A stretch of DNA of 64,000 nucleotides from Escherichia phage IME267, in the sequence record NC_070983.1. One strand, 5' to 3'. A program made the position numbers and the translations under genes. This document shows, piece after piece, positions 4,157 to 53,839 of the stretch. The notes beneath the pieces are model-generated. The model searched no databases, had not been told where the DNA came from, and worked only from the letters and a program-made list of their open reading frames with translations. The stretch's first letter is position 1, and each line of letters opens with the position of its first letter.

Positions 4157-4165
4157 GGAGGAATT

Positions 4166-7186: not shown

Positions 7187-7191
7187 CAAAT

Positions 7192-7212
7192 AGGGGCTTC
7201 GGCCCCTTTTAT
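7192..7212 (+). terminator. Intrinsic terminator hairpin (AGGGGC-TTCG-GCCCCT + TTTT)
   Basis: Perfect stem, UUCG loop, T tract, directly after stop of 4166..7186. Confidence 0.55.
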
Positions 7213-7221
7213 TGTTTTTAA

Positions 7222-8202: not shown

Positions 8203-8203
8203 C

Positions 8204-9238: not shown

Positions 9239-9247
9239 GGAGTTATT

Positions 9248-10045: not shown

Positions 10046-10054
10046 GGAGGACGT

Positions 10055-35216: not shown

Positions 35217-35750
35217 TTATACACCCTTAGATGCAACTACACCATTACTGCCGTTGTATCGACCCTTCACTGCATAAGAGTCATCACCAGCGTGAGAGTG
35301 TTCGAACATAACCATTTGACCAACACGCATCCCAGCACGAACTCGTAAGCTATGATTATGGGTAACGTTATGAAATTCAAAGGTTAGTTTACTGCTGTTA
35401 AACCCTGCATCAGCCCAACCAGCATGGAGGTGGTTTAAACCACAACGAGCCATTGAGGAGCGAAGTACAAACAGGCTTGAGATGTTATCTGGAAGGTTAA
35501 ACTCTTCCATTGAGTGCGCTAAGAAGAATTGCCCCGGAGTGATAACAATACCATCTTCAGGGATTTTTACTTCTTTCCACTTGAGGTTTTCTTTAGCATC
35601 AATGTCAACAATTCCGTCAGCCTGTTCTTCAACAAGGATAGTATCACCAATACGGATATCCACGCTAGCAGCGTTAACATATTTATGCTCCGCATCTAAA
35701 AAGCCATTATCAATAACGCTGTGTAATTCTTGAGAACCTAAAAGACTCAT
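35217..35750 (-). CDS. dcd: dCTP deaminase (dUTPase superfamily)
   Basis: …GLNHLHAGWADAGFNSSKLTFEFHN…GMRVGQMVMFEH… conserved core. Confidence 0.75.
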   Translation of the reverse strand: MSLLGSQELHSVIDNGFLDAEHKYVNAASVDIRIGDTILVEEQADGIVDIDAKENLKWKEVKIPEDGIVITPGQFFLAHSMEEFNLPDNISSLFVLRSSMARCGLNHLHAGWADAGFNSSKLTFEFHNVTHNHSLRVRAGMRVGQMVMFEHSHAGDDSYAVKGRYNGSNGVVASKGV

Positions 35751-37198
35751 GAGTTTCTGTCTCCTTGTACAGATGATGCCAAATTATTAATCATGTTACG
35801 AGCTGTTTCACGAGATAATGTAACACCTGCTAAGTTGTTATGAAGCTCACCAGATAGCTCACGAGCAGCAGCTCGAAGTTCTGTACCAAGTGTAGTATCG
35901 GAGTGAGCCAAACCATTACGACGACTATAAGGTCGAGGAGCTTCGTTAGCGTCATTAGCCAATGATGCAAAACCAATATGAGCAGCTTCACGAGCCGCTA
36001 TAGTTGACACTCGATCTTCCGTAGGGGTTGGCAAATCACCAACTTCTACACGTTCTATATCACCAGCACGTAGACCCTGAACGACTGAGCTTACTGTTTC
36101 CCATGAACGACGAGAACGCTGTAAATCACCCATTGACGGAGAAGGAATAGGACGAGCAGTTCCTCCTTGGACATGCCATGTACGAGTATCCATTCCAGAA
36201 GAGCGTGCACTACCAAAACTGCCAGTGAAAGTGTCACGAGGTGCCATTGTAGGAGGAACTGCGAATCTTTCCTGTTGCCAAGAATCGCGTCTGTTAGTTC
36301 CCGGAGTCCAAGGCTGCGTGATTGCTTCAGCACCTATAGTGGTTAATCCGCTAGACCATTCTGTCTGTAGGTTAACTTCCTCGTCCAGATAACTACGACC
36401 CCTTTCCTGAGGAATGTTTAATATAGTTTCCATCATCTTCAGGGTATAATGACGACGCTGATTCTGATATAAATTTACACCAGCCATAGGTCCAACTAAA
36501 TCACTAATCAGGTGAACTTCTGGCTCACCGAAAGCTCCCATTGCAAGGTGCATATATTCGATAGAACTGCTATAAACTGCAACAGTTGCTTCAGGCCACT
36601 TTTTGTGAACATACTTCATTTCACGACTAGATACCACAGGAATGTCACGAGTGTATGACATTGCAAACAAACCTTCGTTTGACACATACATGTCATCAAG
36701 AGACATGAACCCCTGACAGATCATAGGAAAGCGACGGCTTAAAGTATCCATATCCAAAGGTAGATTAATCATCATCTGGATTTTAACTTGATCAATCTCA
36801 ATTTCCAGAATCTCTTGGAAAGTGAAAAGTGATTCAGTATAGGTTGTTCCACTGATAGGCTGAACTAGTCGAGATGTGACTTGAAGTCCTTTACTCTCTG
36901 TCCAAGACAAGAAGTTGTCAAGGAACAGTGCAGCATTACTTACGTTAGCAGGGCTGTTTTCCTGACGAGTGTTCCAACGAAACCCTCCTTGAACTAGGAA
37001 GATATCAACATCATTCGGAGTTCTATTTTGAAAGAACGTATCACGGATAGCACCACCTGCAATAACAGGGTAGATACCATCAGGAACTACGTTATCTCTG
37101 ATCAGGTTACGAATCAGGTCAAGCCCTACACTGAGGGCTTCTCCTTCTTGAAGGTTTAATTCAGACAATGGAATCTTAATCATTTCTACATTTTCCAA
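35747..37198 (-). CDS. Pol-beta-superfamily nucleotidyltransferase (CCA-adding/poly(A)-polymerase-like head) with low-complexity C-terminal half
   Basis: …[24 protein letters not shown]… fits the GGxVRD…DxD head-domain signature. Confidence 0.45.
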
Positions 37199-37734
37199 TT
37201 TAGAGATGGGGGATTCTTATAATCAAATCCAGCCATTTGACAAAGACACATGTAAACTTTAACTGTCAAGTTAACGTCTTGCTCACAATAGGTGAACATG
37301 TCTTCAGTGAATGCGTCCCATGCCTCCTCCTGTTCTCCATAATCTCCTTTCAGCTCCCCAAGAAACTCGCCCCATTGTTTGAGGCCGTGACCACGAGGGC
37401 CATGTCTAGGGTCGCCTTTGGGGTATTCTGGACTATCACCAATACGGTCAGGCTTGAGATATCTACTCAGGCACAAAGTATCGAAGACGTTAAAGCGAAA
37501 AGGTATCACATGAGAATAAAACTTAAACAAAGCAGGAAGGTCAAAATCAATAATATTGTGACCTATTACTACATCAGCTTCTTTCAGTTTGTGTAGTGCT
37601 TCTTCAATTTGGTGAGGGCGATACCCCCACCGCTCTCCAGATAATACATCAAATATCCAGATACACCAGACATTCTGAATACCATCATAGAGATTATCCC
37701 CCTCGATATCAAACGCATACAGTTTCTTTACCAC
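37186..37734 (-). CDS. Stand-alone 3'-5' exonuclease (DEDDy/DnaQ-like)
   Basis: Exo I …FDIEGD…, Exo II …[12 protein letters not shown]…, Exo III …YCEQDV…. Confidence 0.65.
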
Positions 37735-39518
37735 GGACGTGCCTCCCCTTCTTGTGCAAGTAAGGAAGCTGCATCCTCTCCATTGGTAACGGTAAAAGGA
37801 TGCTCTTCATCAACTTCATGATCTTCTCGTTCTACAAGACGACCTGTTTCATTGATGTATTTGGTATAGCAAACCCCTGTCTGTCCATAGTTACGCTCTT
37901 TGAGCAGTCGTATGATTGACAAGTTTTTACCTAACCCATCCGCTTGTTTGTTACGTTCAAAACCAATAATACACTGACACCAGCGCATCAATGAACGTGA
38001 ACCAGTAAACTGTACTTCTTTAACCTGACCACCTTCTTCGTGGGGTGCACCACCTGCCGGAGCGTTCAAGTGAGATAATACAAAAGCAGTGAAGTCTAAT
38101 TCCTTACACATACCAGCAAGCTCTGAAGCAATCTTGCTGATTTCTGTGTTTACCTCAGATGGGGTTAAGTGAGATACCAATGCAGTGATGTTATCAAGAA
38201 TGATAAATTTACACTGATTCTCAACTACCCAAAAGCGAATACACTGCTTAATGTCTTCCCACTCGTTCTGCCCAAAGTTGTCATACAAGAAAAACTTATC
38301 AGCGTATCGAAGTGCTTCATCTCGTAGCTGGCTTTCTTCGTACTCAACATCCGGTCGGTGGAATGGAATAGATGCAGATTTACCTGCAATGTTCTTAACA
38401 GACATGCCTACCTTCTCTTCCAAGAAGAAGCCACCACCATTAAAACCATGCTCAAGGCAAAGCCATGCTACTAGTTCGTGTGCGATTAAGGTTTTACCTG
38501 AACCAACACCACCGCCGATTGCAACCATCTCTCCCCAACGAATACCAAAGGTCATGTCGTTAAGAGTTTTCCACGGATAAGGAATACCCCATTCCGCTTT
38601 CTTCAGAGCATCTTCGAGGCAATCAAAAACTGTAACAGCTCCAGCAGGAGATTCCCGCTTAGCTGAATATTTCAGATTGTTGAAAAGCTCTTGACCTCTC
38701 CCTGCAAGTAACATGTCGTTTGCATCTTTGATTTCCTTTTCTTGTCCGTTATAAGTGAACGTACCTTTTGGAATCCTTGCAAACTTAACATGCGGGTACA
38801 GAGAACGACCCTTAGTTAAAGCAATCTCACCTGCATCATCATTGTCCATGCAGAGTACAATCTCCTCGAAACCATTAATAAAATCACGGTTTCTTGATAA
38901 TACAGAAGAGATTGAACCTGCACCGAACGGAAGAGAGACGCAAGCAGGTTTGATGTTAGTTGCGTTTGTAAACGCGGTAAGTACGTGGAACCCAGACATA
39001 CAAGAGAGAGGATCTTCAAAGATGAAGAGTTTCTTGTTGTATACGTCACCACGTTGTGCTTGAGCCATACCAAACAAGTCGGCTTCTTTCACATTACCTA
39101 CATAATAGAACTTCTTGCTGTCTAGAAGTTTTACTTCATATCCAACAATGTTCCCATCACGTTCACGAGGGAAGAAGTAGCTGTCAGGAGTTTGACCATC
39201 TGTTTGGCTTAAACCGATACGGCATCCATAACGTTCAGATACAGCTTTAGGAATTAAGCGACGAGTCAACTCTCCCTGAGGAAGCTCTAAGCAATCGTCT
39301 AGGACTTCTCGGAGTTCTTCAGGGGACAGCTCTTTCTTTTCATTAGGAGTGGGCGTCGTTCCTTTCTCGAAGATTTCATACGCACCACATCTGTTACATG
39401 AACCCCACTCCTCACCGGACTCTTCATTTCGGAAGAGAATCATGTGATTGCGGGTCTTATCACGACCATGAGAGATACACTCTTTACAGCCAGTGTCTCC
39501 CAAAATGATCTTTGACAT
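37728..39518 (-). CDS. Primase-helicase (Zn-ribbon + TOPRIM + DnaB-like helicase)
   Basis: N-terminal CxxC…CxxC, TOPRIM …CMDNDDAGE…, Walker A …GGGVGSGKT…. Confidence 0.85.
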
Positions 39519-39746
39519 GCTCTATCCTCCTTGGAATTCCTTGAGCAATCTTCTTAGTAAAACGATCGTATTTCTTCCCACACATCATCTTGCAAGTTTC
39601 TAAAACCCTGCAAGGTTTGCTTTGTTCTGTGAATAAATTCTTCAGAGTGCTTATCAGGTGTGAGCATACTGACAAACTTTTCATAGCGATTAATCTTCCA
39701 CCGCATCTTCAAGTAGTCAGATTCCAGCTTTCTTAACTTCTGCCTG

Positions 39747-40178
39747 TCAGTTACTGTCATCCTTCTCACCTGCCAGATATGCTGTCCAGTCACCAGATTC
39801 AACCAGAACATCTTGTTCTTCGTCGATGTGATAAATCCACGCTTCCACAGTTTCACCGCTGTCTAATAATACTGGAATCAGTGTACGCTTGTAAAAGGTG
39901 TATGGGTTATCATTACCACGATGACCTTCCAGACCGTCATATGGACCTTCCAGACCAGCTTGGGTTGTTTCAAAGACTTCTACACGAACAGGCTTACCAT
40001 TGCTGTCATGCTCCAAAGATACACTTGGGAAGTATGCTGTGCAATACTGATACAGGTTACAGTTGTTTACTGTCCACCCTTCACCAATAGACACACCACC
40101 TGCACGAGCATTGATAGCGTGGTTGTGTTGACCTTTACGAAGAGAACCATACGTTGCAACTAATACTTTATCAGACAT
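39747..40178 (-). CDS. Gamma-glutamyl cyclotransferase-like protein (AIG2/GGCT fold)
   Basis: N-terminal …VLVATYGSLRKGQHNH… is the canonical YGSL motif region. Confidence 0.6.
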   Translation of the reverse strand: MSDKVLVATYGSLRKGQHNHAINARAGGVSIGEGWTVNNCNLYQYCTAYFPSVSLEHDSNGKPVRVEVFETTQAGLEGPYDGLEGHRGNDNPYTFYKRTLIPVLLDSGETVEAWIYHIDEEQDVLVESGDWTAYLAGEKDDSN

Positions 40179-40182
40179 TACA

Positions 40183-40380
40183 TTACCTTTTGTTTAAAAT
40201 TTCTTTTGTACAAGAAGTCCCGTTACACACGAGAACTGTTTGAGTTATAGAATCGACAACTGTTACATGGCTGCCGCATTGAGTTATGATTTGACCTCTC
40301 CCTGAATCTTTAGAGATGCATTCATCAGCGGCGATCGCTGACACACTGAATAAGGAGAGTAAAAATAGAATCTTTTTCAT
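40183..40380 (-). CDS. Small secreted Cys-rich protein
   Basis: Signal peptide MKKILFLLSLFSVSAIA, then 5 Cys in 48 residues. Confidence 0.4.
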   Translation of the reverse strand: MKKILFLLSLFSVSAIAADECISKDSGRGQIITQCGSHVTVVDSITQTVLVCNGTSCTKEILNKR

Positions 40381-41311
40381 GGCTGCTTACCAATCATGTT
40401 GGAAACCAGAATATCCAGAGAAGATGATTGATCGGATTGGCTTTTCAGGGAATTCTTCAAAACATCCCTTAATGGCTTTCTTGGTTTCATCAGAAATTGA
40501 CTCTTTTTCACCAAACCAATATTCTTCAAAAATATCAGAGAAGATATAAGTTCGGTATCTTTCCAAGTCATAAAAACCTTCCACTGCACTTGTAACAGCT
40601 CTACTAATTACACTTGAAGCTACAGGAAATAAGTCACCGTGTTCCAGAAACAAGCACCAACGATCAAAGAGAGGAATCTCTTCATCTTTCAGAAGACTTT
40701 CTAACTCTTCCTTTGCCTCTTTCTTGTGCTTCTCAAAGAGGTTTTTGGAATACTCTACATCTAAGATACGACTTTTAAACATATCCAGTTTATTATTAAC
40801 CATTTTACAACCTCTAGTTAAATTCGAACTAGCCTCCTCTTTCGAAGAGGCTAAAGCAAATTATTCTACTTCGAAGTGTTTGATCACACCAGTCAGTACA
40901 TCAGATTGGAATGTACCAACTAGCTCTGTACCTCGGAAGAAGTTAACACTTGTTCCAAGTGATTCAAAGCGATCTGCTTGAATGTCCAGAGATTGAATAT
41001 TTCCTTCTGCTGACATTGTACGAAACATGATTGTGTATTTATTCACAGACTTGTTACTCCCTTATCTGCTTGTGCAATTGCGATGATACGCTCAGCACAT
41101 TCCATTGAATATTTATCACCTCGTTTGAGGAAGGTGATGATTGCAGAGAACTGATTACCAATCACTCTCTTATTTGTGATACCAAACTCTTCACAGAGTT
41201 GGTTGATAGCTTTACGAGAGCCTACAATCAGAGGCTCTTTTTCTTCGGTCATTCCACGGCTGATCAAATCTTCGATAGACAACATTACAAATTCCTTTTT
41301 GTTTAATTTAA

Positions 41312-42547
41312 TTACAGAGTTACTGCTACTTCGCTACCTTCAACATTGACAGACTCTAACTTGCGAGGGTTATGAATCTGGACTGGATTGACCGGAACGT
41401 TCCAACCACTGCGGTAGAAGTTACGACCATCACAGAACAGGATGACATTGGCAGACATTGCATTCGGTTGCAGGTTGTTGTGGACATGACGGATATTTGC
41501 AATCCAGTAGCCACGAGACAAAGTGTAGCCAGTAGGTGCATTACGAATAGTTTGAGTATTCATCTGACCTTCCAGTTGCATTTCTTCAGGAACCACATCA
41601 ACTGAATCAATCGGCTGTGCTACTTGTCCTTCCAGTGCAAAGTTTTCATCATCAGCACTTTCAATATCATCCACCAACTCACCGTCTCCATCTTCAATCG
41701 GAGTCTGGTAAACCACTTTATACTGAGGAGTATAGAGAGGGTTCTGAGCTTTAACAAACTCAAGAATGTTATGACGGTAGGTATCCAGAGTTGTACCAGT
41801 CAGGCCCGGTGCTGTATTAACTTCCAGTACCCACGCTTCTTGACCTTTGGTGATAATATCAACTGCACCGAAATCCAGACCTATTGATTCAACAGCTTTC
41901 ACTGCATTGATCAGAGAGGCGTCATTCGGAGCATCTGTGAAGGAGCTTGAGTAAACCCAGCCAGTGTGGTGATTACGAATATCTTCACGATAGTTAGGGT
42001 CTTCGCGATAACCATTGCGACGAATCTTCTTCTGAACATAGGTGATTACACCTTTGAACACATGGACACGCCACTCACGACGTGGGCCTTGAATGCCTTT
42101 AGTGTACAGTTCAGCTCGACCAAGACCATCACCCGGTTCTACAACAACAATGCCCGAACCAGAGTGACCAGTCAGCTCATGGCGCTCATACACAATATTA
42201 CCAGTGTTTGACCACTCTTGAGCAGTCTCTTGAACATCTGTGTATTCCACAGTTTTAACACCTGCTTGGTCCATCACGCTGAAAGCACGACGTTTGTTCG
42301 CTGCCATATGTAAGGCTGCGGTACGGTTAAGGACGGTTGCAGAACCAAAGAATGATTCAGGATAGCGACGGTTCCCGTAGTTAACAACCACATCACCTTC
42401 ACGAGAACGCCAGCGGCTATTCTCTGAAAGAAGACCCATCACGTTAGCATTGATTCGTTCATCACGGATAGTATCACTGATAGCAGATACTAGAGCGTTA
42501 ACAGAATCAGACGGGCCATACGGAAGAACACGGATACGAGTAGTCAT
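41312..42547 (-). CDS. ATP-grasp ligase, RimK-like
   Basis: …GHSGSGIVVV…, …EWRVHVFKG…, …FGAVDII…VLEVNTAPGL… ATP-grasp blocks. Confidence 0.6.
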   Translation of the reverse strand: MTTRIRVLPYGPSDSVNALVSAISDTIRDERINANVMGLLSENSRWRSREGDVVVNYGNRRYPESFFGSATVLNRTAALHMAANKRRAFSVMDQAGVKTVEYTDVQETAQEWSNTGNIVYERHELTGHSGSGIVVVEPGDGLGRAELYTKGIQGPRREWRVHVFKGVITYVQKKIRRNGYREDPNYREDIRNHHTGWVYSSSFTDAPNDASLINAVKAVESIGLDFGAVDIITKGQEAWVLEVNTAPGLTGTTLDTYRHNILEFVKAQNPLYTPQYKVVYQTPIEDGDGELVDDIESADDENFALEGQVAQPIDSVDVVPEEMQLEGQMNTQTIRNAPTGYTLSRGYWIANIRHVHNNLQPNAMSANVILFCDGRNFYRSGWNVPVNPVQIHNPRKLESVNVEGSEVAVTL

Positions 42548-42996
42548 TTTTAGATACCTTTTAGTTTAAGAATTTCGTTACGACAGGATTGAATTTTAGC
42601 TTCGATTGCCCAATACTCAGCGAACATTTCGTCTTCTTGGGCATCGCTTGGAGAGTCGATTAAGTTAAAAGCAAACGGATACAGCTTTCGCTGCTCCGTT
42701 ACCAGTTGTTGAAGTCGGAGTTGTTGATACTCCAGCATTGTCAGGTGAGGCTTAGCTCCCTTGCTTGACATGAGGCTCAACTTTAATCCCCTTCATTTTA
42801 ACATAGTCAGCCAACACGTTATTGATAACGGTTGGAAAAGGGATTTCTACTGGAGAGTCAACCAGCTTCCCAATACCTTCTTGCATCCACTTCTGGATTG
42901 CTCGGAGGTTATCACATCCTGTGCTTGTCATCGGAATACGGCGGGTAGTTACCACGTTATCCAACATCAGTTTACGAACTTCCATAACTATACCTC

Positions 42997-45030
42997 TTAG
43001 TGTTTACCTTTACAGTAATCTGAATTACAGATCACCCTGTTTTCTTTGTTCAGTGAGCAAGTTTCTGCATCACGCCACGGAATTTGTTTATAACAGACTG
43101 CACAAAACCCAATTGAAGTCCAGAGGGCTTTTGTAAACTCAGCTGTTCGTTGTCCATCGTAACTGACAACTGTTTTTCGGAGAGAGGTTGACTTTTCTGG
43201 AAATGTCTCCGCTTTCTCAGCGGGTACCTCCTTTGGGGCATTCTTTGGACCATAAACAGAGATGGCATAAGTATCACCACCACGTTTTTCCAAATACGAA
43301 TTAGGAACATCTGCAAGTGTGATGTCCCCTGAACGTTTTGCTGAGCTGACCATTACAATCATACGGCTAAGCATACGTTCATCAACACGAACAGCTACTT
43401 CAGGACGACGTGGGTTGGTTGTGTCTACTGCTTTAGTCCAAATATAACCTTCAGATAGAGTAACATTCTTTACTTTATCTTTGATTTCTTTGGAGCAGAT
43501 ATAACAAACGTCTTCACCACGAAGTTTACTCATTTCGTTGTCAAACTCGAAATCAGTCTTGACTTCACCACAGATAGCACATACACCCAAAGGCACATCT
43601 TCTTCCTCTTCAGAGGTTTTAGATAACGCTTCGAAGCATTCTGGATGCCAGTATGCCTGATAAGCAAACACAGCCTTACGAGCATCTTTCCAGTCAATGT
43701 GCTTATCACAACCACCACAGTCACCATGAGAGTGAGATTCCCAGAACTTACGAGTGACTTCTACACCATTCTTAGTGATGAAGGAGTCCTCTGCATCAAA
43801 AGGGATATCATCATCAAAATCAGCAGTAGTGCTTTGAGGCTCCTTATCTGTAGCATCAACAAACAGCCCTGAAGTTAGTACGAGGCGAATCATACTGTCC
43901 ACTTCGGAGATACAAGCAATCGTCCCGCGATATACTACCTTTGGGTTTTCAAGAGCCTTAAGATATTCATCTTTGGCTACGTTGTGAACATCCCCTTCGA
44001 CATACTCTTGAGCTTTATCATCGTAGATGTAACCAACCATCTTACCACGATCTGTGTTGTTATAAGCATGGAACTCGTGAGGAATAATATCCACACGACC
44101 ATCACGACGATAAGGAAGACCACGATCGGCAGCCAGTTTGTTCTGGTCTTCAATCGCTTTACGACGACGAATGTCTCCGCTTGTCACGCCGGGCTTGTCG
44201 TCTTTGTTTCCGTAAATGTCGCTTGTGCTGCTGCTTGATTTGTTTGTCTGTTGGTTCTGATAAAGAGAGGAGTTCGAGTAATAGCCGCCCCAGCGACTCG
44301 TTACCGTAAAAACCGGAAGCGTGTGCTCCACCTCTTGAACCAGAGTCATACGACTGTTAGACACATCAAAGATATACTCAGTTCCCACTTTACATTCGAA
44401 GTGGTCATTGATACGGTTCTTATGGGACTTAGAACGCTCTAAAATCCACATAAGCATAGCTTCTTCAGAAGCTCCAAACCAATCCAAACCACAGCGGGCT
44501 AGGTGGAAAGGACGCTCATCATTACGGATAATGTGAAGCGTGTTGTCTTTAGCATCATGCCAAATCAAAGTGAATGCACCATCCAGTTTTTGGATAGTCT
44601 CTGCTGCTCCAATGGTGTTAATTGAGTGGCAGATGTTTTCACTATCAACTTCGAAACGCTTACTGTCAGGAAGGAGATCTTGATCTAACAGGGTTCCATT
44701 ATGAACCAGAGTAATATCCCCGTGAGTAAATGGGTGAGCATTTCGAGCATTGACAGCCCCACGAGTGGCATGTCGGCTGTGACCAACAATCCACGAAGGA
44801 GGAACTACGTAGTTCGTAAGCCCTTTGGTAATATTTGTATATTCTGTCTGGAGCATAAAAGCATAAGAAGGAAGAGCTTCTTTATAAGAGAAGACTTGCT
44901 TTTCACCTTTACGCTGACCAAACACACCAGTTGAGTGCTGTCCACGGAAAACACCAGCATACAGAAGTTGGTTGAAAATGTCCAAATCTGCTGAGGTCAT
45001 GTTGCCGCCAGCTAATACGATACCACAAAT
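42997..45030 (-). CDS. Class-II glutamine amidotransferase-like (Ntn) domain fused to Cys-rich C-terminal region; probable ATT start
   Basis: CGIVLAGG…, …GHSRHATRG…, …NAHPF…, …VHNGTLLD…; C-terminus with several CxxC pairs. Confidence 0.6.
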   Translation of the reverse strand: MCGIVLAGGNMTSADLDIFNQLLYAGVFRGQHSTGVFGQRKGEKQVFSYKEALPSYAFMLQTEYTNITKGLTNYVVPPSWIVGHSRHATRGAVNARNAHPFTHGDITLVHNGTLLDQDLLPDSKRFEVDSENICHSINTIGAAETIQKLDGAFTLIWHDAKDNTLHIIRNDERPFHLARCGLDWFGASEEAMLMWILERSKSHKNRINDHFECKVGTEYIFDVSNSRMTLVQEVEHTLPVFTVTSRWGGYYSNSSLYQNQQTNKSSSSTSDIYGNKDDKPGVTSGDIRRRKAIEDQNKLAADRGLPYRRDGRVDIIPHEFHAYNNTDRGKMVGYIYDDKAQEYVEGDVHNVAKDEYLKALENPKVVYRGTIACISEVDSMIRLVLTSGLFVDATDKEPQSTTADFDDDIPFDAEDSFITKNGVEVTRKFWESHSHGDCGGCDKHIDWKDARKAVFAYQAYWHPECFEALSKTSEEEEDVPLGVCAICGEVKTDFEFDNEMSKLRGEDVCYICSKEIKDKVKNVTLSEGYIWTKAVDTTNPRRPEVAVRVDERMLSRMIVMVSSAKRSGDITLADVPNSYLEKRGGDTYAISVYGPKNAPKEVPAEKAETFPEKSTSLRKTVVSYDGQRTAEFTKALWTSIGFCAVCYKQIPWRDAETCSLNKENRVICNSDYCKGKH

Positions 45031-45107
45031 TTTCTAATCCACCTGAAGGGTAAACCCTTTCATCTAATTAACCTTTAAATGCGCCCTGTATAAGAGCGCC
45101 CGTTGTG

Positions 45108-46208
45108 TTACAGCAGTCGTTCTAATTGCATTTCCAGATGGTCTGGAATATAACCAGTGACGTTATCATCACTGCTACCTGATTCACGCATCAATGCAAA
45201 CATGTGACGAATTTCACGAACCGTTGCGATTCGAGTGCTTTCAATCTGAGGGGTGTAGTAGGTCATGATCTCTTCGTAGACACTGTTGGCATTACCGCGC
45301 ACATATCCCAAGAAACCATAGAAGTCATTCATATCACGTAAGTTGATAAGGACTTCACCATCAGGGCCAGTCTGTTGCACACGAACACGACCAACCAAAG
45401 TCACAGATTGCTCACGACAGAAGAGAATATCACGAGCAAGACGATACCCTTCAGTGAGATCACTGTCTCTTGGAGTATAGTCTAGGGGTAGATGTTGAAT
45501 CATAGGAGCGAAGCGCAGCTCATTCAACTTCTCAACATAAGCTTCATTGTCTAAATCTGCATATTCAACAGCCAGTTTCTTGAGAACCAAGAAGCGGTTG
45601 ACCAGATTCAGAAGTTGGCTCTTTTTCCACTTCGGCTCTGAGATACGGAACTCAACAGAACCAAATTGAGATAGAGGCAAAAGATTAAGGGAGGTATATT
45701 TATCCCAGCTATTAACAAGAGAGTGGAAGAAAGCTTCCCCGTCTCGGTTGAACGCTGACGAAGCATTCATAACTTGTGCTTGAACGACAGCAAAAGCTGG
45801 ACAGAAGTTGCTACGATAGCGATGGTATCCAGAACATTTGAACATCATCTTTTCATAGAACGTCCATCCAAGAATAACTTTCTTAAGGATATTACTATCA
45901 GCGTCACGCATATCCATATGAACGTGAGTGGAGCAGCGCCAAGTTCCCTCGGCTCCAGAATCCTGTACTGCTTCACTCAGATTGTTAATAGCACGAAGTA
46001 ATTCTTCACCGTTGTAAGGTCGTGCACACACTAATTCACAACCATCACGAAGAGAGCCATCTTCAGTACAAACCCACATATCAGCGTCAATATCAGTTGT
46101 ACCTTCGACTTCTAACTCAATACCAACACCACACTGAAAAGCAATACTTGGATGCGGTTCAGATAAGCGAGGGTTACGGTATCCAAAAACTTGTGCTACG
46201 GTTGTCAT
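45108..46208 (-). CDS. GS/GCS2-like carboxylate-amine ligase (amidoligase)
   Basis: …GVGIELEVEG… and …CSTHVHMD… resemble GCS2/YbdK-type metal-binding motifs. Confidence 0.5.
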   Translation of the reverse strand: MTTVAQVFGYRNPRLSEPHPSIAFQCGVGIELEVEGTTDIDADMWVCTEDGSLRDGCELVCARPYNGEELLRAINNLSEAVQDSGAEGTWRCSTHVHMDMRDADSNILKKVILGWTFYEKMMFKCSGYHRYRSNFCPAFAVVQAQVMNASSAFNRDGEAFFHSLVNSWDKYTSLNLLPLSQFGSVEFRISEPKWKKSQLLNLVNRFLVLKKLAVEYADLDNEAYVEKLNELRFAPMIQHLPLDYTPRDSDLTEGYRLARDILFCREQSVTLVGRVRVQQTGPDGEVLINLRDMNDFYGFLGYVRGNANSVYEEIMTYYTPQIESTRIATVREIRHMFALMRESGSSDDNVTGYIPDHLEMQLERLL

Positions 46209-46831
46209 AATGATTCCACCAACTCTACATTATATGATGACAGGTCTGAAGAAATATGCTTGAACTTCTCCAGAAGGTTTAAAGATTGACGACCATTGTC
46301 GCCATAACCAGCTTCAAGAAGCACGTTTCCAACGTAAGCTCCTTTGTAATAAACTTTTCCATCGACAGGGTTGATATAGATGAAACGAGTAACCAACCCT
46401 TCAAACTCTGGATTAAACAGGTTGTACACCAAATCACCCGGAATCGAACGTCCGAGAGAAGGTGGAGTACCACGAAGTTTATTCCCCATCAATCCTTTAG
46501 CTCGCTGACGAACAGGGTTGATATGGGTCCAGCTCACCATGTTATTACCATGCTGAAGGTATCCTACATCTGGAGACTCCAGAATGAGGCTGTGATCAAA
46601 CACTGGGATATTACTAACAATCTGACGTTCAAACTGACCTTCGGAGTTTTTAGTCCAGCGTTCCGCCTCAAACACTAAAGACATTTCAGCGTCGTGTGAG
46701 TAGTCGTCAATATCAAAGTTACCTTGCTGACGAACATCAAGCACATATAGAGGGAGGTTTTTACCATCAGGTGATCGCTGAGCAATCCATGTTCCACAAT
46801 AATAGTGTTGAAAATCTCTTAACAAGCTCAC
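46205..46831 (-). CDS. Hypothetical protein within the amidoligase cluster
   Basis: 208-aa ORF coupled to neighbours. Confidence 0.35.
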   Translation of the reverse strand: MSLLRDFQHYYCGTWIAQRSPDGKNLPLYVLDVRQQGNFDIDDYSHDAEMSLVFEAERWTKNSEGQFERQIVSNIPVFDHSLILESPDVGYLQHGNNMVSWTHINPVRQRAKGLMGNKLRGTPPSLGRSIPGDLVYNLFNPEFEGLVTRFIYINPVDGKVYYKGAYVGNVLLEAGYGDNGRQSLNLLEKFKHISSDLSSYNVELVESL

Positions 46832-46840
46832 AATATCACC

Positions 46841-47647
46841 TTATACAATCTGGAGTTTAGAGGAGAATTTATCCGCTTCTTTAACATCGTTACTGTTGAT
46901 GATGTTGTGAAGCTTTTCAATTGGAAGGCGAGAGTGAAGTGACATCAATACTTCCATATCACAGCCTTGAACAACCTTATCAACTTGCTCATAAACAAAC
47001 TTGCGGGTTGACTTCTCGCCAATCCAGAAGTTAGAAAGAGAACGATATTCAATGCCGTAATCCTTGTAACGAATAGCAGAAGCCTTTCCGTATAACTCTT
47101 TACGACGAGTGTCTTTATCCATGATCACAGCTGGCAAGGACAGGAAGTAATCACACAACACACCCAACATCATTTGAGTCTGACGACTAATTTCCAGCGT
47201 ACCAGCGACGCCAAGGTGAACGTGACCGCCAGCAGTACGCAGACCTTTGTCTGTCGCTACTGGTGAAGGGTTCTTTTGTCCAGTGAAGGCATTGAAATCA
47301 GGAGTACAACCAAATACAAAGGCTGACGGATGGAAAGATTCCAGCTCTTCTGAAGTGAACACATGAGAGCTAATCCCAAGTGCTGCCTCCATGCCACGTT
47401 CATTGAGAACTTTGTTAGTCAGATCAATACCACGCTGAATGTTATCATTAAACGCTTCAAACCCTTTCTGTGGGTTAATATCAAACTCGGCCAGAACGTT
47501 GTCTTCTTGAAGACGAACATCAGGAGCCAGATCAATTTTATTATCTTTAGAACAGCCCAGCTTACCAGCCACAGAGGTGATAATACCGGAAGCAGTACGA
47601 ACAAACATTTCAGGGTCAGAGCCAATAAGGAAAGCGCGCTTAGTCAT
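46841..47647 (-). CDS. Second GS/GCS2-like amidoligase-type protein (tentative)
   Basis: …IGSDPEMFV… and …GGHVHLG…; start set to MTKRAFL with GGAG RBS. Confidence 0.4.
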   Translation of the reverse strand: MTKRAFLIGSDPEMFVRTASGIITSVAGKLGCSKDNKIDLAPDVRLQEDNVLAEFDINPQKGFEAFNDNIQRGIDLTNKVLNERGMEAALGISSHVFTSEELESFHPSAFVFGCTPDFNAFTGQKNPSPVATDKGLRTAGGHVHLGVAGTLEISRQTQMMLGVLCDYFLSLPAVIMDKDTRRKELYGKASAIRYKDYGIEYRSLSNFWIGEKSTRKFVYEQVDKVVQGCDMEVLMSLHSRLPIEKLHNIINSNDVKEADKFSSKLQIV

Positions 47648-48590
47648 TGTAATACTCCACGAGTTCATCAAAAAGGGAAACAACACGAGCACCAGCTTCT
47701 TCTGGTGTCATTGAGGAAGGTACTGCTTGCATCAGACGTTCGATAAAACTTTGAACAGTAATTCTGTCCATACGCTGATCTAATACTTCTCGCTTGTGGC
47801 CTGCACAAGTTGACCAGAGACGTAACCACTCACTCATACTCTCATAATGGTCAGGGTCTTGGTCACGACGACGTGCCATACGACGGAGAACTCCATCATT
47901 ATGGTTTCGTACATAACCATCTCGGTTGTCATCAACACCGAATACATTCTGAACCCATACGTTTTCAGAAAATTCATCAGTGGTGCAAATTAATGGCAGA
48001 AATGCAATTGCACTCATGTCGCCATCAAAATAAGTCGCTGCTGACTCATCGGTTGAGTCTACGTCATTACTATAACACCAGCGACCAAAGAAGTTACGAC
48101 TTAAACCAGCTAAGCGTAGAGCTAAACCGATTCGTTGTCGCTTAAGCAACTCTTCCTTGTCTTGTACGCCTTCCTGAAGGAACTCCATTCCATTAAAATC
48201 ACCATCCAAATAGCTACGGATGGTCATTAGTCCAGTAAACACCTTATCTGCTGGATGGTTTCGAAGGTTCACGGCAATAGAGTTCACCGAAGTGACAGAG
48301 AACATATCTTTATAGCAAGACATTGAGTTAAAAATGTCTGTTGCTTCAACTAAAGCTCTTTCGATATCTTTAGCTGGTACGCCATAAAAATTGTGAGGCC
48401 AGAAGTTAATAACTTCAATTTCTGAAGTTCTGTCACGAAGGCTTGTTCGGTTACGACTTTCACCGTTAATGTCTGTAACAGAATACATGTGCATACAGTT
48501 AAAAGTACCAAAGCAAGCTCTTCCTTTGAACACTGACTCACCGAAATCCTCTGCCGGTGTTACCGGAGCAATCGATGCGGAGATTGACAT
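47640..48590 (-). CDS. Hypothetical protein within the amidoligase cluster
   Basis: 316-aa ORF, no recognisable motif. Confidence 0.35.
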   Translation of the reverse strand: MSISASIAPVTPAEDFGESVFKGRACFGTFNCMHMYSVTDINGESRNRTSLRDRTSEIEVINFWPHNFYGVPAKDIERALVEATDIFNSMSCYKDMFSVTSVNSIAVNLRNHPADKVFTGLMTIRSYLDGDFNGMEFLQEGVQDKEELLKRQRIGLALRLAGLSRNFFGRWCYSNDVDSTDESAATYFDGDMSAIAFLPLICTTDEFSENVWVQNVFGVDDNRDGYVRNHNDGVLRRMARRRDQDPDHYESMSEWLRLWSTCAGHKREVLDQRMDRITVQSFIERLMQAVPSSMTPEEAGARVVSLFDELVEYYND

Positions 48591-48598
48591 ATTCGCCT

Positions 48599-49816
48599 CT
48601 ATTTATTAAAGAATAATTTTTCCATAATGGTTTCCCACTCTTCTGAGGGGAGGGTTGAGAACCCGTTTCCGTGAAGCCTGTTTGTCATGCAACTAATAAT
48701 ATTGTACATGTTGTAGCTTCGGGTGGATTCTGTTCCATTGTTCCAGTTATAACCGAAAACAATTTTATCGAAGGAGGTTTTATCCGTAGTTACTTCTCGG
48801 ATAAACTCAACCAAGAGCGATTTCTCTGTGATGACCGCACGTTCACCATCTGGCAGATTGCAATACTGAGGAAGAAGGATTGGTAAGAACATCGAATTGT
48901 TCACTCGACAATCACGAACACCTTCACTGCGATAGATTAGGCTTGAGAAGTCTTCATCACGCAGGTGTCCTTCACCTTCAGTGTATTCACACTGTCGCCA
49001 CTTGGTCTGGCGAGGCTCAATCATTGTACTACCAACGCCTACTGTATACAGAGACGCTTGGAAAATACATGAATCGTAATCATTCCCTGTTAAAGCAACT
49101 TGCTCGTTGCCGAACACATCCACTGAAGAGTTAATCAGTCGGCTGAATGCAAGAGAGGCTAGTGGAGACCAACCTTTCTTATACATCTTGTTCAGCATTT
49201 CATACACAGCAGATTTTTCATCATCTGTATAGAATGTACGATTCAGCATCAGATAGAACAGAGCGCGATCAGCAGGACAACCATCAGTACAAACACCCAT
49301 GAATCCTACTTCATGCCATACCAGACATGAGTCAGAATCTTTATCCATGAATGCTTCAAAGGCTTCCATTACAGCCCTGTCAGTAACATCAGGACGGTTG
49401 TTTTCTTCTGCCCATGTTTCTACATGAGAAGGAGGACGAGGGTCTCCATTCTCCACCCCTTCGCGGAAATATTGAGTGGTAATAGGCTTTTTATCACCAT
49501 AACGTTTTACACCATAAGCGGGAAGGTGTGTACCAGAGTTCCAGATGTACTTAATTTCGGACATAGGCATCATGTTTTCGAGAACGTTCTCTTCAGCAGT
49601 GCCTTGACGAACCATCATATTTTCACTCCACACCTTAATGCGGATATTCCAGCCGTAGTTGCTGTCATACGTGTTATAATAATCAGGATCACCATCTTCA
49701 TCTTCATCATAATCACCACCCTGATAGTAACCTGCTTTCAGGAAACCATAACAAGGAGGCCAGACGGTTACAACATCATCTGATTCTTTCCAGCTTTGAA
49801 GTGTTACAGGGAACAT
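48599..49816 (-). CDS. Hypothetical protein within the amidoligase cluster
   Basis: 405-aa ORF with acidic Tyr-rich N-terminus. Confidence 0.35.
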   Translation of the reverse strand: MFPVTLQSWKESDDVVTVWPPCYGFLKAGYYQGGDYDEDEDGDPDYYNTYDSNYGWNIRIKVWSENMMVRQGTAEENVLENMMPMSEIKYIWNSGTHLPAYGVKRYGDKKPITTQYFREGVENGDPRPPSHVETWAEENNRPDVTDRAVMEAFEAFMDKDSDSCLVWHEVGFMGVCTDGCPADRALFYLMLNRTFYTDDEKSAVYEMLNKMYKKGWSPLASLAFSRLINSSVDVFGNEQVALTGNDYDSCIFQASLYTVGVGSTMIEPRQTKWRQCEYTEGEGHLRDEDFSSLIYRSEGVRDCRVNNSMFLPILLPQYCNLPDGERAVITEKSLLVEFIREVTTDKTSFDKIVFGYNWNNGTESTRSYNMYNIISCMTNRLHGNGFSTLPSEEWETIMEKLFFNK

Positions 49817-49827
49817 CTTTTACCTCT

Positions 49828-50190
49828 TTACTCTGCTACCAAAAGGCTCAGAGATTTGCGAATGTAGTCAATACTACGGAAGTTTCGATAACTCTCTTGG
49901 AAGCGCATCTTTTCAAACTCTGCTTCCTGAAGCTCTACCTCTGCTGCTTTATATCCTGATAAAGCTAAACTTACCACATCCTGAGGTAAGGTATTACGAC
50001 GGCGAATAAGATATTTATTCGCTTTTAGTTTACCTTGTGCACGAGCCATTTTGGCCTTTGCCGCCTTGATACCATGAGAAATCCAAAGCAGTTGCTGTTT
50101 CAGATCTTCCTCATCCATACCACCTAAATCATTTGCTACTTTATGCAGCGTAGACAGGTTCACATGGCCTTTAATGGGGCGTAGGTTCAT
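49828..50190 (-). CDS. Hypothetical protein
   Basis: 120-aa helical ORF; start overlaps stop of upstream small ORF (ATGA). Confidence 0.35.
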   Translation of the reverse strand: MNLRPIKGHVNLSTLHKVANDLGGMDEEDLKQQLLWISHGIKAAKAKMARAQGKLKANKYLIRRRNTLPQDVVSLALSGYKAAEVELQEAEFEKMRFQESYRNFRSIDYIRKSLSLLVAE

Positions 50191-50354
50191 AACTTCTCCT
50201 GTTTGTCACATTGATTGGTTAGCCAGTTGTAAGACCCACTGTTGTTCTTGCTTAACTCGCAAGATGCAAAAGAGTACATCCTGACAAACCCCACAGTGGC
50301 TAAGCAAATAAAGATTGCTGCCAATAAGAATTTAGCTTTCAACTTATTATCCAT
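50187..50354 (-). CDS. Small signal-peptide protein (55 aa), not in the ORF track
   Basis: Translated by hand: MDNKLKAKFLLAAIFICLATVGFV…; AAGAAGAGG RBS; ATGA coupling to next gene. Confidence 0.35.
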   Translation of the reverse strand: MDNKLKAKFLLAAIFICLATVGFVRMYSFASCELSKNNSGSYNWLTNQCDKQEKL

Positions 50355-50372
50355 ACAACCTCTTCTTTGAGC

Positions 50373-50400
50373 TTAAAAAAGGACTCTCCTAAGAGAGCCA
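50373..50400 (-). terminator. Terminator-like hairpin on - strand followed by U6
   Basis: GGCTCTC-TTAG-GAGAGTCC then TTTTTT on - strand. Confidence 0.4.
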
Positions 50401-50489
50401 AGCTTTAAGGCCAATTAAATAGATATCACCCAATATCTGTGGATAACCTGCTCTTAAAATATTCTATCCGACGGATGTTCGAGGATTAT

Positions 50490-50600
50490 TCCTCTCCCTA
50501 GCATCGGCCCCATACGGGAAAGATTAAATTAAGTTTAGGTTAGTTGAGCCAGAATAGCTCACATAGCCCTCTGATACTCACAAGGGCTATAGATGTTACT
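50490..50600. repeat. Copy 1 of ~110-nt repeated element with conserved hairpin, immediately 3' of paralog gene 50596..50844
   Basis: Blocks tctccctagc…tagttgagtgag…ctcacATAGCCCTctgatactcacaAGGGCTATa…gatgttact shared with 56030..56150. Confidence 0.6.
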
Positions 50601-50844
50601 CTGTGGCTCCGTCGAATCGGAGGATTGCTGCTGGAACAGGGTATACTTCCAGATCTTCATCCAGTCGGTATAGATGCCCTGTACTTAAATTTACAGCTGT
50701 TACTGGCTTAGAGTGGCCTCCAGCCTGTATGGAAGGAACTCTGATAAAGAACTCTTCTGGATATTCAACAGAGTGGAACACACTTCCTGAATAAAGATCT
50801 TTTATTTTAGAAGTTTGTTTAGGAGTTTTATCAGCAATTTTCAT
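50596..50844 (-). CDS. Small protein, L-x-x-G-(D/E/S)-x-F paralog family
   Basis: …IKDLYSGSVFH…YPVPAAI…. Confidence 0.45.
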   Translation of the reverse strand: MKIADKTPKQTSKIKDLYSGSVFHSVEYPEEFFIRVPSIQAGGHSKPVTAVNLSTGHLYRLDEDLEVYPVPAAILRFDGATE

Positions 50845-51105
50845 TACAGACCTTTCTTAGCACGATCTTTGGCAGTTTTGCCAGTGCGGATACGATGGGA
50901 AACATTAACCAGCTCGCCACCTTCGACGATGGTTACGCTTTTGTTTTTCGCAATATCAAACACAGTTTTCTCTGTGCCGCCCAGACGAATCTGTTTAGGC
51001 TCACTGTGGGTCTGAGTTGATTTAGACTGGAACTGGAACGGCTGACGGATGGCATCAATTGCGCTAACTTTAGACATGTTTTTATTACCTTACATTAAAG
51101 AGAGA

Positions 51106-51534
51106 TTAAACAACGAATTGGAACGCTTCGTATCCAAACTTGTATAAGAAATCGTGTTTGAACTTTACTACACGACCACGATCGCGGAAAGCTTTCAGGC
51201 GACTGCTGAACCCAACCATTGGCTCAGGGTCAATAGGGCTACGAATCTTCATAGCTACAGAGTGCAGCTTGAAGCGTTTACCAGTGCTACAGGCCATCAT
51301 CACATACTCCATACGAGTAGTCCAGATGTTGAGCACCATGCTTGTTTTCTCCGCTGACCAACCAGTCTTGCGGGCGATTTCTTTATGGACATTAAGCTCC
51401 AAAGGAAGAGGGAATTGCTTGTTGAATGAAGCCGGATATAGCTTGACCAGAAGGTCAATGTTTTCTTTATACGTTAAGTAAGCCAATTTCTTGCTTACGT
51501 TAGGGAATTTCCCAGACATTTTTTGAAGCTCCAA
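51106..51534 (-). CDS. ProQ/FinO-domain-like RNA-binding protein
   Basis: …KKLAYLTYKENIDLLVKLYPASFNKQFPLPLELNVHKEI…LNIWTT… resembles the ProQ N-terminal FinO-like domain. Confidence 0.45.
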   Translation of the reverse strand: MELQKMSGKFPNVSKKLAYLTYKENIDLLVKLYPASFNKQFPLPLELNVHKEIARKTGWSAEKTSMVLNIWTTRMEYVMMACSTGKRFKLHSVAMKIRSPIDPEPMVGFSSRLKAFRDRGRVVKFKHDFLYKFGYEAFQFVV

Positions 51535-53763: not shown

Positions 53764-53839
53764 TGGTGCACCCTACAGGACTCGAACCTGTAACCAACGA
53801 CTTAGAAGGTCGCTGCTCTGTCCGTTGAGCTAAGGGTGC
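53764..53839 (-). tRNA. tRNA-Arg(UCU): tRNA-Arg (anticodon UCU), 76 nt with encoded CCA
   Basis: Hand-folded cloverleaf: 7-bp acceptor stem, D arm, anticodon loop CTTCTAA, T arm ACAGG-TTCGAGT-CCTGT, 3' ACCA. Confidence 0.8.

Follow-up and report, generated by a model that had tools for sequence, protein, structure and literature searches.

A conserved carboxylate-amine ligase cassette in a phiEco32-like Escherichia phage: a candidate gamma-glutamyl-type pathway

The 64,000-nt stretch of Escherichia phage IME267 (NC_070983.1) analyzed here, which we call the window, comes from a Suseptimavirus of the subfamily Gordonclarkvirinae, a phiEco32-like E. coli podophage. Between its early genes and its replication genes, the window carries a ~10-kb cassette that encodes two GS-like carboxylate-amine ligases (COOH-NH2 ligase type 2 and Amidoligase_2), a RimK-like ATP-grasp ligase, a class-II (Ntn) glutamine amidotransferase (GATase) and a GGACT/AIG2 cyclotransferase, interspersed with several phage-only proteins (Table 1). 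We put the probability at roughly 0.5 that these genes specify a cytoplasmic pathway which builds and trims a gamma-glutamyl-type peptide or amide on a small acceptor. The initial annotation of this DNA had proposed a coordinated amide-bond-forming system with no evident substrate, and this proposal is supported by the conserved synteny, by the invariant catalytic residues of the enzymes and by a published prediction for phiEco32.

The cassette is a rediscovery of the described phiEco32 system and not a new one, because the Pfam family PF14395, to which one of the ligases belongs, already bears the name 'Phage phiEco32-like COOH.NH2 ligase-type 2'. The block was predicted in phiEco32 by Iyer et al. 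(2009), as cited in PMC5498523, PMC11318856 and PMC10580990, and was named 'peptidoglycan modification cassette' by Hardies et al. (2013), as cited in PMC5498523; the published description, as known from these later papers, comprises five enzyme families. The cassette has been listed in phiEco32, 7-11, PA11, tf, LUZ24, PaP3, CW02, RIO-1 and PSA-HP1 (PMC5498523), and papers from 2023 to 2025 (among them PMC11318856 and PMC10580990) repeat the peptidoglycan conjecture and describe the function as still to be explored. Our literature search found no experimental study of the cassette. What is added here is an extended parts list (p208, p316/p405 and DUF7195), the OB/zinc-ribbon architecture and the predicted ATT start of the amidotransferase, the exclusion of a gp79 homolog and of a strain-limited insert from the system, and the probable exclusion of DNA as the target.

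The DNA identity of the 10-kb region is 99.3% with Escherichia phages vB_EcoP_HC-25922, 4E8 and vB_EcoP-101114UKE3, 98% with SU7, 89% with ECBP2 and ~74% with the phiEco32-type Kuravirus phages. The region is collinear with gp77-gp88 of phiEco32, where the same genes stand in the same order, again next to the primase/helicase, with protein identities of 42-84% for the cassette; the differences are at the strain level only, the window having a 621-bp insert that phiEco32 lacks. To follow the cassette further, nine annotated loci from six lineages (Gordonclarkvirinae, Bruynoghevirus, Lahexavirus, Paundecimvirus, a Rhizobium phage and two crAss-like phages) were surveyed by iterative local hidden Markov model (HMM) searches. 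The COOH-NH2 ligase, Amidoligase_2, the ATP-grasp ligase and the class-II amidotransferase occur together in all nine loci and the gamma-glutamyl cyclotransferase (GGCT) in seven of them, and the four families common to all loci are likewise united in one of the Privateer-like metagenomic contigs, which represent a seventh lineage. The gene order in the Bruynoghevirus PhiCHU matches that of the window (hyp374, hyp315, COOH-NH2 ligase, hyp192, amidoligase, GATase, DUF7195, ATP-grasp, GGCT, hyp, primase/helicase). Within the subfamily, the cassette is present in ~96 of ~96 Gordonclarkvirinae records (96 records have a primase/helicase of at least 60% identity), and the COOH-NH2 ligase was found in 309 phage records, 121 of them for Pseudomonas and 92 for Escherichia, with further ones for Vibrio, Aeromonas, Proteus, Salmonella, Cronobacter and others. 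Since phage lineages far from one another carry these families in one and the same order, the clustering is, as judged from gene content and order, not a matter of chance, and the synteny in six or more lineages together with the invariant catalytic residues supports the view that the genes form a functional unit.

The two crAss-like loci, cr108_1 (3700-10756) and Cellulophaga phage phi14:2 (5650-11294), carry a rearranged cassette between the primase and uracil-DNA glycosylase (UDG) genes, and their Amidoligase_2 is longer (486-515 amino acids). An extra gene for a Peptidase_C26, a member of the gamma-glutamyl hydrolase family, is found in cr108_1 (Pfam, 2.6e-12) and in the Rhizobium phage (annotated); cr108_1 also encodes two unknown proteins of ~300 amino acids, at least one of them with an N-terminal C[FY]G.

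All five enzyme assignments of the initial annotation were reproduced by profile searches, with PHROG matches of the cassette enzymes ranging from 1e-41 to 1e-179. The COOH-NH2 ligase matches PF14395 above the gathering score (E 2.6e-8, 33.8 bits versus a cut-off of 25) as well as phrog_3815 (3e-112), and is 80% identical to gp86 of phiEco32; the PHROG match begins at residue 16 of a longer open reading frame (ORF), which supports the start at 47647 chosen earlier. Amidoligase_2 matches PF12224 above the gathering score (E 3.1e-8) and phrog_7469 (4e-142). Both GS-like ligases keep the superfamily motifs E-x-E (D-x-E in the COOH-NH2 ligase), H-x-H and E-x-R: D11, E13, E54, H142, H144, E200 and R202 of the COOH-NH2 ligase are invariant in eight lineage representatives, and E31, E33, E58, H95, H97, E186 and R188 of Amidoligase_2 are invariant across the representatives. 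Sequence searches of the PDB with the two ligases returned nothing useful. The idea that the Amidoligase_2 subfamily is shared with conjugative plasmids was dropped, as the plasmid collection contained no homolog.

The ATP-grasp ligase, which has an acidic linker and a C-terminal extension of ~120 amino acids, is the weakest Pfam call (RimK, E 0.0019, 18.3 bits, below the 21-bit gathering cut-off). It further matches MptN (2.2e-9, 36.8 bits versus a cut-off of 350) and rimK_fam (3.8e-6, 26.5 bits versus 143.4) in NCBIfam, RimK in the PDB (0.009), phrog_2599 (6e-170) and, with residues 336-402, phrog_20552. These scores support a resemblance to the RimK superfamily or clade only, the threshold of the curated RimK family not being reached. 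Its nearest curated relatives, MptN, RimK and CofF, add glutamate to cofactor or protein tails. Residues G130, G132, E158, R160, K174, D230, E242 and N244 are invariant across the eight lineage representatives and make up the Gly loop, E-x-R and D...E-x-N, so that the nucleotide- and Mg-binding motifs are intact. The GGACT protein matches its Pfam family above the threshold (PF06094, E 8.9e-16, 59 bits versus a cut-off of 22.8; phrog_2520, 4e-41), and its Y10, G11, L13 and E84, corresponding to YGxL and the catalytic Glu, are invariant in six representatives. Because the motif residues are invariant across distant representatives, the cassette enzymes look active. None of the enzyme N-termini is signal-peptide-like as judged by eye, which points to a cytoplasmic location. 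Peptides of the ATP-grasp ligase, the GATase and the GGCT were detected by proteomics of an SU10 lysate (PMC4281155).

The amidotransferase (GATase_6 in Pfam, 3e-14; structure model with a pLDDT of 87) consists of a GATase domain (residues 1-242), a disordered linker, a helix with an OB fold (~283-396) and zinc ribbons. It has the four-layer Ntn fold and the glutamine-binding Arg, Asn-Gly and Asp in the pattern of GlmS, PurF and AsnB; R85, N110-G111 and D128 are kept in all 90 aligned homologs, and the predicted Cys1 was also rated invariant. The Cys-rich tail that had been noticed at first sight corresponds to zinc-ribbon repeats at the C-terminal end, with 16 Cys and invariant CxxC pairs (C437 and C440 are invariant). 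No synthase or acceptor domain (SIS, PRTase, PP-loop or similar) was found in the C-terminal 430 residues; therefore, the protein would be either the ammonia donor of a separate enzyme, that is, a stand-alone glutaminase subunit, or an EgtC-like gamma-glutamyl-amide hydrolase. The structural neighbors of the OB fold are S1, SSB and DNA-ligase OB domains. The median isoelectric point (pI) over the 90 homologs, however, is 5.4 for the OB fold and 4.4 for the first zinc ribbon, and only the last ribbon is basic; this acidity weakens the OB fold as evidence for nucleic-acid binding, and with it the reading of the amidotransferase as a nucleic-acid binder.

The amidotransferase start at 45030 in the initial annotation is probably right, and this non-ATG start would supply the catalytic Cys: the predicted start is an ATT (45030-45028) with a good Shine-Dalgarno sequence, the codon of the catalytic Cys follows immediately, and 68 of 89 homologs begin with MCG. 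The automated ORF call and most GenBank records, including those of SU7 and ECBP2, start the gene at ATG 45000, by which the catalytic Cys is lost, and RefSeq annotates gp83 of phiEco32 from ATT. Upstream of the ATT, the leader contains a hairpin right after the amidoligase stop codon, whose pairing is preserved by compensatory changes in phiEco32, then a nine-codon mini-ORF encoding MKGFTLQVD (ATG 45063 to TAG 45034) that ends three bases before the ATT, and a Shine-Dalgarno sequence, AGGTGG. From TTTAAAGG to the start, the window, SU7, ECBP2 and phiEco32 share the same 57 nt, despite the diverged coding regions. Some metagenomic relatives have TAT instead of the TAG stop and would read through as MKGFTLQVDYKI-CGIV, in the general form MKGFTLQVDY(K/S)(I/L)CGIV; this read-through leader peptide resembles the propeptide of B. 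subtilis PurF. A known RNA family (a glutamine riboswitch or downstream-peptide motif) was considered for the leader and rejected, Rfam giving sub-threshold noise only, and the fold z-score of the leader (-0.34) is not significant.

Among the ORFs initially listed as unannotatable, p208, p316 and p405 are indeed uncharacterized and are members of the cassette; the one at 40387-40803 matches DUF7020 (3e-20). p208 lies directly between the GS-like ligases, except in the Rhizobium phage, where small ORFs intervene. Iterative HMM searches with p208 reach Aeromonas 44572_139, PhiCHU gp25 and a Privateer-like contig, and it aligns with TC6_050 and EVB99_037 of the Rhizobium phage (shared residues D6, T14, G90, G113, K163, V167 and G168); p208 is, by these profile matches, a conserved uncharacterized family. 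The 23.3-kDa hypothetical protein (gp86) detected in the SU10 proteomics (PMC4281155) is probably its homolog, as judged from size and gene order only. The p316 family, with 17 homologs, is tiny (22 clusters among 1.84 billion representatives), and its gene always stands right before that of the COOH-NH2 ligase; in Aeromonas 4_4572 (Lahexavirus) and Privateer-like contigs, the protein in this position is reached by the p316 profile (E 3e-5 and 4e-5). In P0195, a metagenomic protein of 2,860 amino acids, nine separate stretches match the final ~45 residues of the p316 family profile (E 1.8e-4), which may indicate either a repeat protein with a small C-terminal module in common or a noise match. 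Neither p208 nor p316 has a relative in the PDB by sequence.

The fold of p405 was predicted with confidence and has no match in the PDB, where a sequence search also gave nothing useful. p405 and p316 have in common C[FY]G near the N-terminus, PAD[RK]..LM..R, W.Q and G[HY].R, and the p405 model gives a Foldseek match (E 9e-5) to a 322-amino-acid Lahexavirus protein of the same length as the p316-family member 44572_137. On the basis of the shared motifs and the Foldseek match, p316 is a probable distant paralog of p405; the profile comparison of the two by hhalign was not significant (E 0.08), nor were hhalign and hmmsearch between p405 and PhiCHU gp22. The protein identity between the window and phiEco32 is 93% for the primase/helicase, 84% for DUF7195, 80% for the COOH-NH2 ligase, 69% for the GATase, 60% for the ATP-grasp ligase, 55% for p316 and 42% for p405, which is by this measure the fastest-evolving cassette member. 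DUF7195 (PF23825, 3.3e-19) is encoded downstream of the amidotransferase in each lineage that has it, immediately 3' of the GATase gene in PhiCHU (5.5e-18), phiEco32, Aeromonas 4_4572 and Privateer-like contigs. With its pI of 9.3 and its sequence pattern, DUF7195 may be a ribbon-helix-helix-like regulator. A role as a LysW- or Pup-like carrier was rejected, as its C-terminus is not conserved (...KQGS, ...ITVH, ...YYFE, ...QSSN) and has no conserved Glu or Gln.

From the family identities, the intact catalytic motifs, the conserved synteny and the expression in SU10, we infer an order of reactions, a gamma-glutamyl chemistry and a kind of acceptor as follows. First, the COOH-NH2 ligase, Amidoligase_2 and the RimK/MptN-like ATP-grasp ligase would each activate a carboxylate with ATP and join it to an amine, and the three would together assemble, in the cytoplasm, a short peptide or amide of the gamma-glutamyl type on an acceptor of low molecular weight, for which amino acids, polyamines and nucleotide-linked peptide precursors of the cell wall are candidates. 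Second, the Ntn amidotransferase would give glutamine-derived ammonia to one of the acyl-phosphate intermediates, or would hydrolyze a gamma-glutamyl amide as EgtC does. Third, the GGACT enzyme would cleave off a gamma-glutamyl group in the form of 5-oxoproline, so that the product is set free or a protecting group is removed, a step modeled on the glutathione cycle or on the BtrJ/BtrG pair of butirosin synthesis. The conserved p208, p316/p405 and DUF7195, which do not look enzymatic, would serve as specificity, scaffold or regulatory subunits.

A small-acceptor pathway is favored because a gamma-glutamyl theme runs through the cassette: GS/GCS ligases, an ATP-grasp enzyme whose kin add glutamate to tails, an Ntn enzyme that binds a free alpha-amino-acid moiety, GGACT and, in some loci, Peptidase_C26. 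Such an enzyme set is that of the glutathione cycle and of the gamma-glutamyl carrier or protecting-group pathways, namely BtrJ/BtrG (butirosin), PuuA/PuuD (putrescine use) and EgtA/EgtC (ergothioneine). Like the gamma-glutamyl cycle with glutathione synthesis (GshA/GCS, GshB, GGCT/ChaC), the cassette combines a GCS-fold ligase, an ATP-grasp enzyme and a cyclotransferase, but it has no equivalog-level similarity to GshA or GshB and adds a second GS-like ligase, the Ntn amidotransferase and several phage-only proteins. The likeness to BtrJ/BtrG, PuuA/PuuD and EgtA/EgtC extends to the enzyme families only, and the cassette has no carrier protein, decarboxylase or other tailoring enzyme of those pathways. 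As for peptidoglycan synthesis, no Mur ligase domain is found in the cassette, and the matches to Ddl, with E 6e-5 to 0.02, are weak and do not come near the cut-offs.

Several observations weigh against this small-acceptor pathway. The OB fold and zinc ribbons that take the place of a synthase domain in the amidotransferase, and the divergence of p405 (42% versus 93% for the primase), are not explained by it and would fit the recognition of a macromolecule better. The ligases match characterized enzymes far under the family cut-offs, and therefore substrate specificity cannot be transferred from those enzymes. The cassette lies within a few kb of a primase or primase/helicase gene in five of the six lineages, Lahexavirus being the exception, which could suggest nucleic-acid metabolism. 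Moreover, the literature to 2025 offers conjecture only (cell-wall modification, superinfection exclusion or nitrogen metabolism) and no substrate, product or phenotype.

The domains of the amidotransferase and the divergence of p405 are better explained by the main rival, protein modification, which we regard as possible, if doubtful. Here host or phage proteins would receive glutamate or a short peptide from the ligases, at a C-terminus in the manner of RimK or through a PafA-like gamma-glutamyl-lysine isopeptide; the tag would be edited or taken off by the amidotransferase and GGACT, p405/p316 and the OB/zinc-ribbon region would recognize the target, and the purpose would be host takeover or counter-defense. 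The cassette shares with the RimK, LysX-LysW and PafA-Pup systems a RimK-clade ATP-grasp enzyme and GS/GCS-fold carboxylate-amine ligases, a superfamily to which PafA itself belongs, and the ATP-grasp kin include RimK, which extends a protein C-terminus. GGACT enzymes are known to act on gamma-glutamyl-epsilon-lysine. The OB fold and zinc ribbons of the GATase are typical docking domains, the acidic pI of the OB fold and the first ribbon suits protein over nucleic-acid binding, the rapid divergence of p405 is as expected for an interface under conflict, and protein targets have been proposed by Aravind and colleagues for other phage ATP-grasp ligases (PMC4431377). Unlike those systems, however, the cassette has no recognizable tag or carrier, and the RimK score is 26.5 versus 143 bits. 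DUF7195 has no conserved C-terminal Glu or Gln, and the small p61/gp78 protein, whose last residue is Glu in the window as well as in phiEco32, is confined to Gordonclarkvirinae among the loci examined; no target is known, and modified virion or host proteins are not reported in the literature consulted. Taken more broadly, the cassette might be a macromolecule-modifying machine, a reading we hold only tentatively, in which the three ligases would mark a host protein, or with lower likelihood a nucleic acid, with a glutamyl group or peptide, and p405/p316 and the OB/zinc-ribbon arm of the amidotransferase would select the target.

Modification of nucleic acids, that is, the attachment of an amino acid or amide to DNA bases or tRNA for restriction protection or altered translation, appears improbable. 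It would account for the primase or primase/helicase next to the cassette in five lineages and the UDG gene in crAss-like phages, for the S1, SSB and DNA-ligase neighbors of the GATase OB fold, and for the reported resistance of Gordonclarkvirinae to all restriction-modification (RM) systems tested in the BASEL study, where no known modification pathway was seen (PMC11990801). In addition, thymidine hypermodification clusters sometimes include amidoligase or amidotransferase domains, such genes standing beside thymidine-hypermodification genes in some viral contigs, and both these clusters and the cassette are phage-encoded and near replication genes (Lee et al. 2021, PMC8989533). Against it stands the avoidance of restriction sites in the window: CCWGG occurs once versus 95 expected, GATC 118 times versus 283, PstI 0 versus 17, EcoRI 5 versus 22 and BamHI 2 versus 10. 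Such extreme avoidance implies that the phage DNA is exposed to restriction. EcoRV (22 observed, 20 expected) and EcoP1I (111 observed, 113 expected) sites are not avoided, and that these remain in the window speaks in favor of modification. The DNA of Bruynoghevirus U17, which has the same cassette, was cut by 11 of 16 restriction enzymes (PMC11945000). Furthermore, no DNA-directed enzyme (5-HMUDK, aGPT-Pplase, dUMP hydroxymethylase, TET/JBP or DpdA) was found in the Pfam, NCBIfam and PHROG matches of the ORFs scanned from 35747 to 51534, so that the first three, which mark the thymidine clusters, are missing from the region, and the cassette ORFs contain no kinase, glycosylase-like, TET/JBP or transglycosylase domain in Pfam or NCBIfam. 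The acidity of the OB fold and of the first zinc ribbon, described above, also counts against it, and the BASEL authors suspect the dCTP deaminase and nucleotidyltransferase, not this cluster, of a possible role in DNA modification (PMC11990801). Global DNA hypermodification is thus the least supported of the targets that the initial annotation had put forward, given the site avoidance, the cutting of U17 DNA and the absence of a DNA-directed domain.

It is very improbable that the genes have no common pathway and are independent auxiliary metabolic genes (AMGs) that boost the glutamine, glutamate and nitrogen metabolism of the host. In an eLife paper (PMC10945688), such genes of phages (amidoligase, GATase, 'glutathione synthase' and GGCT) are read as AMGs of nitrogen metabolism, and the families all touch glutamate or glutamine chemistry. 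However, the gene order and co-occurrence are kept in six or more lineages together with three or four phage-only partner proteins, the ligases are distant from the housekeeping GS, GCS and GshB, and the GATase has no metabolic synthase domain.

The ORFs of the cassette are present where the initial annotation had placed them. All genes of the region are on the minus strand and nearly gapless, and the cassette genes apparently form one transcription unit. Its probable upstream boundary, from the pattern match and from the terminator annotated at the equivalent position in SU7, is the terminator-like hairpin that precedes p55, p120 and the cassette (Table 1). As for promoters of the gp36 type, the exact TAATGTATA was not found within the cassette and overall counts are not above chance; one site with one mismatch lies 16 nt upstream of the Amidoligase_2 start. 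The PADLOC defense models gave no match.

Table 1. Features of the cassette region in the window, listed in transcription order except for the last row.
Feature	Coordinates	Strand	Remarks
p55	50187-50354	minus	first in transcription order
p120	49828-50190	minus	second in transcription order
p405	48599-49816	minus	first large cassette gene; protein with confident predicted fold
p316	47640-48590	minus	phrog_13102; directly upstream of COOH-NH2 ligase
COOH-NH2 ligase type 2 (GS/GCS-fold carboxylate-amine ligase)	46841-47647	minus	PF14395; ortholog of phiEco32 gp86
p208	46205-46831	minus	phrog_4877; between both GS-like ligases
Amidoligase_2 (GS-like carboxylate-amine ligase)	45108-46208	minus	PF12224
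Amidotransferase leader, 77 nt	45031-45107	minus	hairpin, mini-ORF, Shine-Dalgarno
Class-II (Ntn) glutamine amidotransferase	42997-45030	minus	GATase_6; 677 codons, predicted ATT start
DUF7195	42752-42985	minus	PF23825; small basic protein
p76	42550-42780	minus	after DUF7195 in transcription order
ATP-grasp ligase, RimK/MptN/CofF-like clade	41312-42547	minus	NCBIfam, PHROG, motif residues
p80	41043-41285	minus	phiEco32 gp79 homolog
p61	40861-41046	minus	gp78 homolog
DUF7020 protein	40387-40803	minus	DUF7020, 3e-20
Signal-peptide protein, 65 aa	40183-40380	minus	N-terminus and 4 Cys
GGACT/AIG2 cyclotransferase	39747-40178	minus	PF06094; last cassette gene
Primase/helicase	37728-39518	minus	directly downstream of GGACT gene
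Terminator-like hairpin and T-run	50382-50399	minus	consensus scan match GGCTCTCTTAGGAGAGTC then CTTTTTT; pattern match only

Two elements within the region were set apart from the system. p80, which was absent from the initial list of ORFs, has 80 amino acids and is 73% identical to phiEco32 gp79; by this homology it is a transcription regulator sited inside the cassette and no component of the ligase system. phiEco32 gp79 is a transcription factor that displaces the host sigma-70 and activates the phage sigma factor. The 621-bp insert (40183-40803, minus strand) between the GGCT gene and the gp78 homolog encodes a putatively secreted 65-amino-acid peptide and the DUF7020 protein and is found in nine phage records only (seven phages). 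As SU7 and phiEco32 do not have it, the insert looks like a moron. The earlier description of its first product as a secreted Cys-rich peptide agrees with a signal-peptide-like N-terminus, MKKILFLLSLFSVSAIA, and four Cys. Outside Gordonclarkvirinae, p61, p76, p120 and p55 were not found among the loci examined.

Beyond the cassette, we noted further minus-strand genes. A 142-amino-acid ORF (51106-51534) has a near-threshold match to a ProQ/FinO domain (E 1.1e-5, 25.8 bits versus a cut-off of 27) and may encode a phage RNA chaperone. On the other side, a 483-amino-acid 'nucleotidyltransferase' (35747-37198) has no Pfam match; the SU10 authors likened the nucleotidyltransferase to a CCA-adding enzyme, and it is the one that the BASEL authors suspect, along with a dCTP deaminase, in DNA modification. 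Its gene is overlapped by that of a 182-amino-acid 3'-5' exonuclease (37186-37734), elsewhere annotated as a DNA polymerase subunit, and a tRNA-Arg(UCU) gene (53764-53839) lies 14 kb from the nucleotidyltransferase gene.

The cassette is one of the most widespread phage enzyme blocks still without an assigned function, being carried by all Gordonclarkvirinae, by therapeutic Pseudomonas phages of the LUZ24/PaP3 type, by Zobellviridae and Lahexavirus and by some crAss-like gut phages. It fills ~10 kb of a genome of 76 kb, and no loss of it is seen in the subfamily; it must therefore matter to the phage. If the cassette does mark macromolecules, this would be a new chemistry of host takeover or counter-defense common to hundreds of podophages and crAss-like phages. 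Relatives that infect K-12 (BASEL phages Bas86-Bas91) are now available for genetics. After 15 years, the explanation in print is a guess at cell-wall modification, and the product of the cassette would reveal either a new phage metabolite or a new modification of a host macromolecule.

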